NCBI GenBank assembly: GCA_019057385.1
Contig: JAHQJS010000004.1
Location: forward strand, 776,585 to 808,584
DNA: 32,000 nucleotides
Reading direction: 5' to 3'
Source of the DNA: Candidatus Borrarchaeum weybense
Lineage (GTDB): Archaea > Asgardarchaeota > Sifarchaeia > Borrarchaeales > Borrarchaeaceae
The position numbers and the translations under genes are program-made. Of this stretch, positions 29,483-32,000 are shown piece after piece. Every line of letters begins with the position of its first letter. The stretch's first letter is position 1. The notes beneath the pieces were generated by a model that worked only from the letters and a program-made list of their open reading frames with translations, had not been told where the DNA came from and ran no database searches.

Positions 29483-29530
29483 TTAGTGTCCCTCACCGAC
29501 CAGGTTAATTTGGCGTGAAAAGTTACTTTA

Positions 29531-29586
29531 AAACCTTACAATTATTTATAAAACAACGGAATGGTTGATATTATTCCACGTTTTAT
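29531..29586. repeat. 56-bp repeat, copy B (3' end of the TnpB-like gene plus 15 nt beyond its stop)
   Basis: Matches 13106..13161 at 51/56 positions. It contains a hairpin that is better on the minus strand: GUGGAAU-N10-AUUCCGU. Confidence 0.8.
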
Positions 29587-29720
29587 GATAATTATTAATC
29601 TTTCTCTTGGAAAAGGAAAGACCAGCCCTAAGGTTATCAGGCTGTACGCTCGTCACCGAGTTCAAGACATATTCCATCAATATCGTTTTTTTCAATATTT
29701 CGATAGTCTTGAAGGATGTT
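29531..29720 (-). ncRNA. Possible omega-RNA/reRNA-like scaffold overlapping the TnpB-like 3' end (speculative)
   Basis: Minus-strand hairpins are CAGCC-N12-GGCUG, UCUUUC-N11-GAAAGA and GUGGAAU-N10-AUUCCGU. In IS200/IS605 TnpB systems the guide RNA scaffold overlaps the tnpB 3' end. The extent given here is a guess. Confidence 0.25.
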
Positions 29721-31075
29721 ATCCCGCTGTGCTCAAAAAGGTCATGGATCCTCGACCATGTACGGTAAGGACTGCCCTGTTTCACACGGGGCTCTAAATA
29801 ATCCCCGACGTGTGAGAGCACCCAATTGTAAACGGGTGGAATTGCTTCCTTGAATCCCAGCCCTCTTCGAGCTATTACATAACTTGCTAAGTGATGGACT
29901 GACAAATTATGTAATCCTGAATACTTGTATTTCCCAATGAGGGAAGTATATCCGGGAAATACCTTTTGAATTGATACACCACGCTTTTCACACTTTCGCT
30001 CCAATAATTGCAGCGCAGTAGTCTTTAAATTACTTATTTTTCGATTACGTTTCGTATTATATGAAAATTCTTGGTCGAATTGTAAGTCCTCAACCACGAT
30101 TCCTTTGCCTTTATTGATGCAATAATTAACGACTTTATCCATCTTATAGGAGATATAATCCTTACGTTTATCTTTTCTATAGGTGTGAAGGTTGCCAAAC
30201 GATATACTATGATAGGAAAGTAATTTACCGTTCTTGTCCACATTTGTTAGTGCTAGAAAGTTATAATTGAAATCTAAGCCGATAGCGCCATCTTTGTATC
30301 TGTAAAATGTCGTCGGGTTTGGGATATCAAAAGACACATGGACAAAGTAACGTATTTTTCCCTTAAAGATGTTCCGTTTCACTGTTATCGTGTATTTATC
30401 GGCATTAAAAACCTTCTGAAACCACTTTTCCTGTACAGAATTTACGGATATGGGAATGACCAACCATTTGCGTCCTTTTTGCTTAGAGAAAGTGCGTATC
30501 TTAACTGTTTTATTAGGTAAAACCTTAATGTTATGGTTTTGTATACCATTTTGTTTCTTTCCGATACAACCAAAGGAGGAATCCCTTCGTATCCTGAATT
30601 CTTCCCTGCTTATATTACTGCGTAATCTGTCTCTAAATAATTTCTTTGTCCCAAATACAATGGGTTCTAGTTGCAAATTATGTAGTTTAGCTATTATCGA
30701 GGATCTGCGGGCGAATAAGCCTTTTAATCGCCTATCATGCGTATCTTGTTCCTTTATTATGTTTATTTTCTTGTTAATGACTTCTAGCTGCTTGCTCATG
30801 TATTTCCGTCTTTTTTCAAGCCAAGTTTCTTGTGCTTCCAGTTTCGCCCTATTATTAATAATGATGGTATTGACATAGGGATTGTTTTGACAAATGGACA
30901 TTAAACACTGCTGGATGCTTTTATCCTCGCCAAAGCGTTTAGCAATATATTCCTCACCATAAAAAAGAAGGTTATAGCAGATTCGTTTCACACGATTATA
31001 GATTGTAAATATTTCATGTAGCGCATCTTCATGTAGTTTGTCAGGATAGATCTTGAATTTAATGGTTTGAATCAT
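29546..31075 (-). CDS. TnpB-like (IS200/IS605 OrfB family) protein lacking the zinc finger and with a degenerate RuvC-III motif
   Basis: The N-terminus MIQTIKFKIYPDK...IYNRVKRICYN has the typical TnpB pattern. RuvC-I is GAIGLDFNYN (D268) and RuvC-II is GIVVEDL (E329). The YTS motif (376-378) is followed by only 15 aa and then SVHHLASYVIARRGLG, where TnpB normally has a CxxC...CxxC finger and aDxNAAxNIxRRG. There is no Cys after residue 362. About 105 aa of extra C-terminal sequence follow. Confidence 0.8.
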   Translation of the reverse strand: MIQTIKFKIYPDKLHEDALHEIFTIYNRVKRICYNLLFYGEEYIAKRFGEDKSIQQCLMSICQNNPYVNTIIINNRAKLEAQETWLEKRRKYMSKQLEVINKKINIIKEQDTHDRRLKGLFARRSSIIAKLHNLQLEPIVFGTKKLFRDRLRSNISREEFRIRRDSSFGCIGKKQNGIQNHNIKVLPNKTVKIRTFSKQKGRKWLVIPISVNSVQEKWFQKVFNADKYTITVKRNIFKGKIRYFVHVSFDIPNPTTFYRYKDGAIGLDFNYNFLALTNVDKNGKLLSYHSISFGNLHTYRKDKRKDYISYKMDKVVNYCINKGKGIVVEDLQFDQEFSYNTKRNRKISNLKTTALQLLERKCEKRGVSIQKVFPGYTSLIGKYKYSGLHNLSVHHLASYVIARRGLGFKEAIPPVYNWVLSHVGDYLEPRVKQGSPYRTWSRIHDLFEHSGITSFKTIEILKKTILMEYVLNSVTSVQPDNLRAGLSFSKRKINNYHKTWNNINHSVVL

Positions 31076-31102
31076 TCTTTGTTTTCCCCTACCTCTCTTC
31101 TT

Positions 31103-31885
31103 CTAGTTCAAGTTTGTTTTTGATAACTGTTTCCTAATATCTTCAAAATACAGCTTTAATCTTTGAATTTCCTTACTTGGTAATGGATTATTATGTGCAA
31201 TAATATTTCTTGAAAGTTCAATCTCATCTAGCCTTGCTTTAATCCATCCTTGATTTGGAAAACGCTCTTTAAAGTCATCCCAGTTTTTAGTAATTATTGA
31301 ATGTAAATCACCAAAATCTGTGTAGGAAATCCTGTCTGAACCCCTCTGGCTATGCCATCTATTCTTTCCCTCTCTATTTAACCTTGTATTGACTTTTCTG
31401 TTTATTGATGAGGAAACTCGTTGCTCCCACCACTTCTCTCCATAGTTTGCTTTAAGTACATTCGTAATAAAATATCTAAGTGCATTTTCAAGCAAATACA
31501 ACATTGGATAGACGTCTGCCATTCGCTTTGCTTCGTTAGCCAAATTCTTGGGTATTAAAAAACCTTGGAGCAACTTTTCCCCAAATTTAATAGAGACTAT
31601 TGGCGCTGTTTTTCTTTTGGTTTGCTTCGCCTTTGTCAAGGGTGTAGTTGCAGCTTGCGTTTTTCTTAACGTTATTAATTCATCTATTTCTTCCTTCTTA
31701 AGATATTTAGAGACATCTATTTTCATTTGTGCAGCTAGAAGATTAGCAGCTGTCTTATTTGAGATCGTGTAATCATGTTCTTTCCTCTTTTCTTGTATTA
31801 TTTTGTAAATGCGGCTTTTGCTCTTTCCAGTTTTTTTTAAAAGAGCATTAAACACGTCTTTATTAATTCTAGTCAGTAAATTCAC
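31103..31885 (-). CDS. Swt1-like HEPN domain protein (predicted RNase) with a basic N-terminal region
   Basis: LLENALRYFITNVL...GEKWWEQRV...ISYTDFGDLHSIITKNWDDF...LDEIELSRNIIAHNNP matches the Swt1-type HEPN pattern, including the Rx4H motif (RNIIAH). GTG start overlaps the upstream ORF by 17 nt. Confidence 0.7.
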   Translation of the reverse strand: MNLLTRINKDVFNALLKKTGKSKSRIYKIIQEKRKEHDYTISNKTAANLLAAQMKIDVSKYLKKEEIDELITLRKTQAATTPLTKAKQTKRKTAPIVSIKFGEKLLQGFLIPKNLANEAKRMADVYPMLYLLENALRYFITNVLKANYGEKWWEQRVSSSINRKVNTRLNREGKNRWHSQRGSDRISYTDFGDLHSIITKNWDDFKERFPNQGWIKARLDEIELSRNIIAHNNPLPSKEIQRLKLYFEDIRKQLSKTNLN

Positions 31886-32000
31886 CTGGGTTAGTTTCTT
31901 CTTTCAACTTTTTTGACTCTTCTTTTCTAATCTTGTGTAACGTGACATTGACATAGTTCTGAGTCTTTCCAAGTATTCGTGCAATATCGCTTGGTTTGAT
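31869..32000 (-). CDS. Helix-turn-helix protein, C-terminal fragment (gene starts beyond the right edge)
   Basis: The reverse complement gives IKPSDIARILGKTQNYVNVTLHKIRKEESKKLKEETNPGEFTD*. The IARILGKTQNYVNVTLHKIR segment looks like an HTH recognition unit. Confidence 0.5.
   Translation of the reverse strand: MKPSDIARILGKTQNYVNVTLHKIRKEESKKLKEETNPGEFTD

Follow-up and report, generated by a model that had tools for sequence, protein, structure and literature searches.

Does a TnpB-family gene that lies 27 nt behind a HEPN gene belong with it, or have the two come to rest side by side? The question is raised by the right-hand end of a 32,000-nt stretch of Candidatus Borrarchaeum weybense DNA (contig JAHQJS010000004.1, positions 776,585 to 808,584; the whole stretch is the window below), where four co-directional genes are packed on the minus strand. 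In reading order these are a small helix-turn-helix (HTH)-like open reading frame (ORF) that runs off the window end (31869..32000, the C-terminal 43 of 85 codons; full ORF at 8519..8776 of the longer contig L022), an Abi2/Swt1-clade HEPN protein of 260 aa with a GTG start (31103..31885), a TnpB-family protein of 509 aa (29546..31075), and guaB, encoding IMP dehydrogenase (28046..29482). The stop of the HTH-like ORF (31869..31871) overlaps the HEPN start by 17 nt, an overlap that recurs in L022 at 8760..8776. The HEPN-tnpB gap (31076..31102) contains no T run and has a Shine-Dalgarno-like GGTAGGGGA box at 31093..31085, and 63 nt separate tnpB from guaB. A reading made from the letters alone (the sequence-only reading) had described these four genes with the same coordinates, overlap and gaps. 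Its labels were upheld by matches to TIGR01302 (487 bits) and PF00478 (1e-114) for guaB, PF18731 for the Swt1-type HEPN protein and TIGR01766 for the TnpB-like protein. It had proposed that the genes form an RNA-guided module coupled to the HEPN and HTH proteins, or that they are part of a larger inserted element. We consider it likely that two unrelated modules, a TnpB element and a HEPN cassette, were juxtaposed here by insertion history and not by function. Positions 29532 to about 31109 derive from an IS607-family OMEGA element and have no tnpA, and 31103..32000 together with about 1.8 kb beyond the window are a cassette of two winged HTH (wHTH) genes, an HTH gene and the HEPN gene.

We compared the locus with tnpB, HEPN and guaB loci from relatives' genomes and metagenomes, numbered L001-L084. 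The tnpB loci comprised 21 from species-representative genomes and 51 from metagenomes, mostly Borrarchaeum/Sifarchaeum relatives and often several per metagenome-assembled genome (MAG). tblastn with the HEPN, HTH and guaB proteins found none in the 21 genome loci, and 64 HEPN-family queries together with the 85-aa ORF found none in the 51 metagenome loci. Among the loci with at least 800 nt upstream of tnpB, 0/54 (38 distinct contexts) had such a HEPN or HTH gene nearby. Pfam searches of 33 ORFs flanking 19 of the genome loci returned Fer4, CCG, Rad51, actin, Ras, methyltransferases and others. The proposed coupling therefore fails on both counts that bear on it, since none of these TnpB loci has the HEPN/HTH genes beside it and, as described below, the element ends enclose only tnpB. 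The TnpB-HEPN pairing is an accident of one lineage. That such a pairing had not been described, as the sequence-only reading supposed, is consistent with the absence of any mention of HEPN from the main TnpB survey.

The order HEPN-27 nt-tnpB-guaB recurs only in contigs L024 and L025, where both ORFs are intact and amino-acid identity to the window is 88% for HEPN, 96% for guaB and 98% for the HTH ORF. Because the junctions are identical to the base, the window, L024 and L025 hold one orthologous insertion. Between the window and L024, tnpB has a synonymous divergence (dS) of ~0.4-0.74 (0.27 in the last, RNA-constrained block) at 86% nucleotide identity, and the flanking genes have dS of 0.04-0.36. 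Non-orthologous tnpB paralogues share 80-83% nucleotide identity, hardly below the orthologous value, and gene conversion from paralogues or re-insertion could explain the high tnpB dS at an identical site. The L024 tnpB (10811-12364) carries a 1-nt insertion near its 3' end (12290-12364); its 517-aa ORF crosses the right end of the element, and the last ~10 residues of the protein differ. The only other HEPN-type neighbour of TnpB that we observed belongs to a different HEPN family: at L015:4296-7535, a pair of MNT (127 aa) and HepT (148 aa) genes lies 530 nt upstream of a full tnpB (6001-7521) and follows a C-terminal TnpB fragment that has a right end of its own (4636).

Relatives preserve the site without the insertion. 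Five contigs whose guaB shares 88-94% identity (L081, L082, L083 from a Borrarchaeota MAG, L084 and one further contig) have DUF2284 on the minus strand, ~110 nt, and guaB, with neither cassette nor TnpB (L081:5889-6000, L083:5891-6000). Since this DUF2284-guaB spacer is empty in relatives, the wHTH-HTH-HEPN-TnpB block is an insertion. The empty site reads ...GATAGTATTTTAAATTAACTTTTCACGCC..., and the filled site reads ...GTATTTTAAATTA/CCCCAACC... at its left junction (L022:6768-6850) and ...GTAAGGTT/TTAAATTAACTTTTCACGCC... at its right junction, where the window has TTAAAGTA (29524..29531). The 49 nt of native guaB upstream spacer that remain in the window (29483..29531, minus strand) match the relatives' empty-site sequence base for base. 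The inserted block is ~4.3 kb long and runs from 29532 to about 33800, which places its left junction ~1.8 kb beyond the window. The whole block is bracketed by an 8-10-bp direct repeat, TT(TT)AAATTA, that duplicates the TATA-like box of guaB; the right copy of the repeat directly abuts the right end of the TnpB element. The suggestion of a larger inserted element was thus correct in that the left end is outside the window and the block fills the spacer, and there is no sign that the block moved as a TnpB-driven unit.

The right end of the TnpB element is sharp. Conservation stops 14 nt past the tnpB stop, and every copy ends ...TTATAAATnnnnnAAGGTT, a motif that we found 57 times with 43 distinct unrelated flanks and that sets the right end in the window at 29532. 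The terminus is AAGGTT, in which the TT after GG is invariant across the 43 flanks. At its left end the window copy shares only (GAAC)TAGAAGAAGAG...GGGG...ATG with the independent copies L004, L005, L041, L043, L068 and L070. Upstream of this, the independent copies go on for ~30 nt or more, through AGGTTGAAGAACTCCAAGCACAATTAAACAAAC, and the left end in the window is therefore truncated or internally deleted. What is left is a remnant of ~30 nt, (GAAC)TAGAAGAAGAGAGGTAGGGGAAAACAAAGA, at 31076..31109 on the minus strand, which provides the HEPN stop codon TAG (31105..31103). Together, the sharp right end and the short left end enclose tnpB alone. The left-end segment of other copies holds a AATTAAAC box that is missing here, and the window copy lacks its own TATA-like box. 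Because this segment is missing and no T-tract follows HEPN, tnpB probably owes its transcription to read-through from the HTH-HEPN operon, a co-transcription that we infer to be an accident of insertion.

No tnpA had been seen beside the gene in the sequence-only reading, and this held: tblastn with the family's own TnpA had no match in the window, and Pfam searches of the 23 other window ORFs gave no transposase family among the first 25 of 52 families listed. Relatives do carry one. In L014, a 208-aa protein with MerR-HTH and resolvase domains, an IS607-type serine transposase, is encoded 46 nt upstream of tnpB, and intact tnpA homologues also lie upstream of tnpB in L054, L065 and L074. 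In L012 and L013, tnpA is reduced to its last ~22 codons. Autonomous copies have a common left end beginning ATTATTTCAACTGTTTGTTGAAATTTTATAAAA. With tnpA absent here and present in relatives, the window copy is a non-autonomous derivative and not a full IS607 element; its movement would need TnpA in trans from autonomous copies, and it is probably immobile. IS607 elements are reported to have no inverted repeats and to cause no duplication of the target, and their DNA exchange takes place at a GG (PMC6188088). Like members of that family (e.g. IS607, IS1535), the TnpB family elements have MerR-HTH plus resolvase TnpA directly upstream in some relatives (L014/L065, L054, L074), show no terminal inverted repeats, carry a GG by the right terminus, and are in the majority tnpA-less. 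They differ in the invariant TT after the GG, the window copy differs in lacking tnpA and in having a left end of only ~30 nt, and the direct repeat that flanks the larger block is not known from IS607.

The protein itself was called degenerate in the sequence-only reading, and we found otherwise. It matches TIGR01766 with 36.9 bits against a cut-off of 32, and the Pfam TNB (Cas12f1-like TNB/zinc-ribbon) domain below its cut-off (12.8 bits). We collected 1065 homologues at E <= 0.001, of which the named ones are from Promethearchaeota, Borrarchaeum or Lokiarchaeota MAGs. The exact 509-aa protein and three paralogues (~76-77% identity) lie together on one 1.3-Mb contig, the window's own. Scans of viral contigs with the TnpB and HEPN proteins were negative. 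A 24-member alignment that reaches down to 22% identity has invariant D268 and N270 (GxDxN, RuvC-I), E329 (vvEdL, RuvC-II), P374 and T377 (NPAYTS), and H394 and R403, the latter two in an xHxxAxxVIARRG motif where canonical TnpBs have (N/R)ADxNAA. The family departs in this way from the canonical D-E-D triad, with an invariant His394 in place of the RuvC-III Asp. The C4 zinc finger is absent, as only ~12 residues, with no cysteines, separate NPAYTS from H394. A family-profile search of the PDB matched RuvC-I/II of Cas12f/TnpB structures up to 'PaYTS', and a single-sequence search had no match. An AlphaFold (AF2) model (pLDDT 83, pTM 0.66) had as its top Foldseek matches in the PDB Cas12f 8j3r (3.7e-9), Cas12k, ISFba1 and ISDra2 TnpB, and Fanzor2, over ~470-520 alignment columns. 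In the predicted structure, H394 stands at the N-terminus of the helix after beta-5, like the RuvC-III residue. The ratio of nonsynonymous to synonymous divergence (dN/dS) among tnpB copies is 0.13-0.18, which indicates purifying selection. Since the RuvC-III His and the loss of the zinc finger are conserved family-wide and dN/dS is low, the protein is not degenerate.

Two hallmarks in its sequence, the Asp-to-His change and the missing zinc finger, make the 509-aa protein an RIIIr-4-like TnpB. RIIIr-4 is a major TnpB clade defined by the RuvC-III Asp-to-His change and zinc-finger loss (Altae-Tran et al. 2023, PNAS; PMC10691335), and its members have been argued to be catalytically active because the change is conserved (PMC10691335). 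The window family agrees with that clade in the invariant His, the absent C4 zinc finger and the retained RuvC-I Asp and RuvC-II Glu, and also in having a serine recombinase linked to some relatives and a 3' RNA scaffold with a clear scaffold/flank boundary. It differs in that its ~290-nt scaffold lies almost wholly within the ORF. An archaeal RIIIr-4 subgroup, the ribbon-helix-helix (RHH)/MazE-TnpB pairs, has a small antitoxin-like gene upstream; the upstream genes here are HEPN and HTH genes, and the link is not conserved. Compared with the ISDra2/IS605-type TnpB-omega RNA systems, the fold is the same (8exa and 8iaz are among the Foldseek matches), the RNA likewise covers the 3' end of the gene and stops at the right end of the element, and the guide is likewise expected from the flank. 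The difference is D-E-D and a zinc finger there as opposed to D-E-H and no zinc finger here, as known from sequence and model. The window's TnpB element is not a new kind of system.

The tnpB copies are mostly tnpA-less and under long-term purifying selection. All copies compared (L001-L080) have the dN/dS range given above and an intact RNA scaffold. The copies in L016 and L003, which occupy an orthologous site in two different genera, are an old pair. L006 and L018 are a second such pair, and L018 has a mid-gene frameshift.

An omega-RNA-like structured scaffold lies at 29532..29823 on the minus strand and shares ~280 nt with the 3' end of the tnpB ORF. Across 20 codon-aligned copies, synonymous divergence goes down from ~0.47 to 0.06: it is 0.38-0.56 over residues 1-385 and drops stepwise to 0.24, 0.17, 0.11 and 0.06 over residues 416-509, without a matching rise in amino-acid conservation. 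RNAalifold predicted 73 pairs in 13 helices for the last 300 nt of 22 copies, with 97.2% of cells paired. Compensatory double changes occur at 19 pairs, compared with 9.0±1.6 in shuffles (0/500 reach the observed value) and 3-8 when partners were slid. The window copy retains 72/73 pairs, spanning 29823..29532. Many pairs are G-U, and the structure is therefore particular to the sense strand of tnpB. The terminal AAGGU forms a long-range helix with a GACCU that lies ~210 nt upstream, and the scaffold ends exactly at the right end of the element, ...TTTTATAAATAATTGTAAGGTT (29532). Rfam had no family for the scaffold, also at permissive thresholds; its one sub-threshold match, NrsZ, was taken as chance (17.5 bits vs 76.9).

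To judge by this conserved structure, the scaffold is built like an omega (re)RNA. In the systems studied, processing of the tnpB mRNA yields the omega RNA, whose guide is the flank (PMC10278001, PMC8612924). By analogy, the guide part here would be the 16-20 nt beside the right end, about 29512..29531 (TTAAAGTAACTTTTCACGCC). Following the homing model for TnpB and omega RNA (PMC8612924; PMC10278001; bioRxiv 10.1101/2023.11.20.567912), the tnpB transcript would be cut to release an RNA whose guide is the 16-20 nt of the flank, the TnpB-RNA complex would cut the rejoined empty site (the target-adjacent motif, TAM, plus TTAAAGTAAC...), and repair of the break would use a copy in which the element is still present.

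The other module is the HEPN cassette. The HEPN protein matches PF18731 with 65.6 bits (cut-off 27.5, 6e-18) and has an R226-x4-H231 motif (R226-NIIA-H231), in which R226, N227 and H231 are invariant in 14 homologues, and a conserved N-terminal domain of ~110 aa. Its C-terminus is not truncated, as homologues vary by ±4 residues after a conserved ...KQL. PADLOC matched the protein to the defence-candidate component PDC-M34B (1e-52); no PDC-M34A-like partner was detected, and a literature search for PDC-M34 found none. We found 64 HEPN homologues. L026 (67% identity) adjoins a MarR-type HTH gene and a type I restriction-modification (R-M) operon, L027/28 (61%) have small ORFs and an integrase fragment upstream, and L029 (51%) has small ORFs and then SMC-like and Metallophos genes; no TnpB is present at any of these. 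The cassette is conserved in 5 independent loci as a ~130-aa wHTH, one or two wHTH of ~105 aa, an 80-87-aa ORF, and HEPN (L022:7261-9542; L027:550-2978; L029:835-2268; L026:2-1403). In four of these five, including L024/25, L026 and L027/28, the homologous 80-87-aa ORF overlaps the HEPN start. The sequence-only reading had called this small ORF HTH; its position and overlap stood, and the HTH identity is weak, as all Pfam matches of the 80-87-aa ORFs are below threshold. The small HTH-like ORF is a conserved partner of HEPN.

These genes suggest a toxin- or abortive-infection-type RNase, probably under the control of small DNA-binding regulators, and the wHTH-HTH-HEPN set may by itself constitute a defence or toxin-antitoxin cassette that has yet to be described. 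Prokaryotic Abi2/Swt1-clade HEPNs occur in R-M and abortive-infection contexts (Anantharaman et al. 2013, PMC3710099). The window protein agrees with these and with PDC-M34B in the PF18731 match, the intact Rx4H, the PDC-M34B match and one homologue beside a type I R-M operon. It differs in its partners, which are small wHTH/HTH proteins, and in belonging to an archaeal cassette known from genes alone.

If two modules met here by insertion, the most likely order would be two steps, in which the HEPN cassette entered the spacer and the TnpB element then inserted at the cassette's right edge. With the TnpB element removed at the TT next to GAAC, HEPN would end ...SKTNF-TAA inside the right repeat, and the TnpB-less cassette would be flanked by TTTTAAATTA. 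Several points weigh against the reading of two modules juxtaposed by insertion. The 8-10-bp repeat flanks the whole block and not the HEPN cassette alone, and IS607 is reported to make no target duplications (PMC6188088). The same HEPN-27 nt-tnpB arrangement with intact ORFs in L024/L025 leaves room for some selective retention of the arrangement. Neither a TAM nor a full left end is definable for the window copy, and no TAM was derivable from the left flanks across the family, where left ends form subgroups of differing length and several apparent copies are orthologous loci. H394 was assigned to the RuvC-III position by aligning motifs and from the predicted secondary structure, and not by residue-level structural superposition.

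There is some chance of a single composite insertion, because the repeat flanks the whole block and IS607 elements are reported to lack target duplications. The ~4.3-kb block would then have entered the DUF2284-guaB spacer as a single unit, a cargo-carrying element with HEPN/HTH passengers, bounded on the right by the TnpB right end and on the left by an unrelated boundary. The abutment of the right repeat copy on the TnpB right end fits such a unit, as does the lack of a TnpB-less cassette intermediate at this site among the five empty-site and two filled contigs. The block's left end (CCCCAACCGTCGCC...) does not: a search at the left junction for a left end of the TnpB family gave only short low-complexity matches, unlike the left ends of the window subgroup or of autonomous copies. 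There is also no second instance among the 54 TnpB loci or the 4 other HEPN loci, target duplications are foreign to the IS607 family (PMC6188088), and the two-step path would be self-consistent, with HEPN ending in the right repeat. We regard a composite element as unlikely, and the further idea that a read-through TnpB served in such an island as a homing or addiction device, holding the defence cassette in place, as slightly less likely again. If true, this would make the island an OMEGA element of Asgard archaea that carries cargo.

It is very improbable that the HTH regulator, the HEPN RNase and the RNA-guided TnpB make up a three-gene defence or toxin-antitoxin operon. The spacing is tight and without a T-tract, the arrangement is retained with both ORFs intact in two related lineages, the missing AATTAAAC-box segment probably leaves tnpB reliant on upstream transcription, and TnpB exaptation has precedents, including the RHH/MazE-TnpB pair in the same clade (PMC10691335). 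However, the pairing is absent from all other TnpB and HEPN loci examined, the two filled loci are one orthologous insertion and not independent, and this tnpB has the full transposon right end and RNA of every mobile copy. Its divergence is also faster than that of its neighbours (dS 0.4-0.7 vs 0.04-0.36). An exapted TnpB acting on guaB, in which an omega-RNA guide taken from the guaB promoter region would give TldR-like regulation, is harder still to credit. The presumptive guide (29512..29531) does cover the guaB TATA-like box and the region upstream of it, and the copy has been kept at an orthologous site under purifying selection. Against this, the guide of every copy is its own flank, the flanks at 43 sites are unrelated, residues of the catalytic type are kept and not lost, the family is multicopy with transposase-linked members, and relatives' guaB promoters have no element. 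TldRs and other nuclease-dead exapted TnpBs resemble the window gene in being TnpB homologues beside host-type genes with no transposase. TldRs are nuclease-dead and single-copy, with one consistent target gene, whereas the window family has active-site-type residues, many copies, transposon ends and no consistent neighbour. The hallmark of exaptation, a conserved partner link with loss of mobility, is not seen here, with a link in 0/54 loci and with transposon ends and tnpA-linked members kept.

Juxtaposition by insertion removes the "TnpB-HEPN system" as a false lead, and it illustrates that tight spacing and overlap beside a transposon-derived nuclease can be pure insertion history. The locus and its relatives document, in an Asgard (Borrarchaeum/Sifarchaeum-like) lineage, an abundant TnpB family with the Asp-to-His change and no zinc finger under purifying selection, together with its ~290-nt guide-RNA scaffold, exact right ends, IS607-type autonomous relatives and a pair of filled and empty sites. 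These provide raw material for testing RIIIr-4-type TnpBs as active RNA-guided nucleases.

Elsewhere in the window, downstream synteny is conserved among guaB orthologues (88-96% identity), and guaB is a host housekeeping gene outside the TnpB element. No tRNAs were found in the window, nor any Rfam family at gathering thresholds. The HEPN TAG (31105..31103) is in frame with the tnpB ATG, with no stop between (31073..31105), and a HEPN-TnpB fusion by TAG read-through (pyrrolysine decoding) was considered and found unsupported; the codon looks like an ordinary stop, as TAG closes 6/26 window ORFs and the frame match has a chance of one in three. MtmB and B12-binding genes lie nearby in L022. 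A solo right-end remnant of 55 nt (13107..13161, minus strand; 91% identity to the element's last 55 nt) sits at the 3' end of the ORF 12353..13126, keeps the ...ATAATTGTAAGGTT terminus, and is the footprint of another, lost copy of the TnpB family. At L054:2300-5552, two right-end termini (2337, 5552) bracket an intact tnpA-tnpB element, which suggests tandem or nested insertions of the family.

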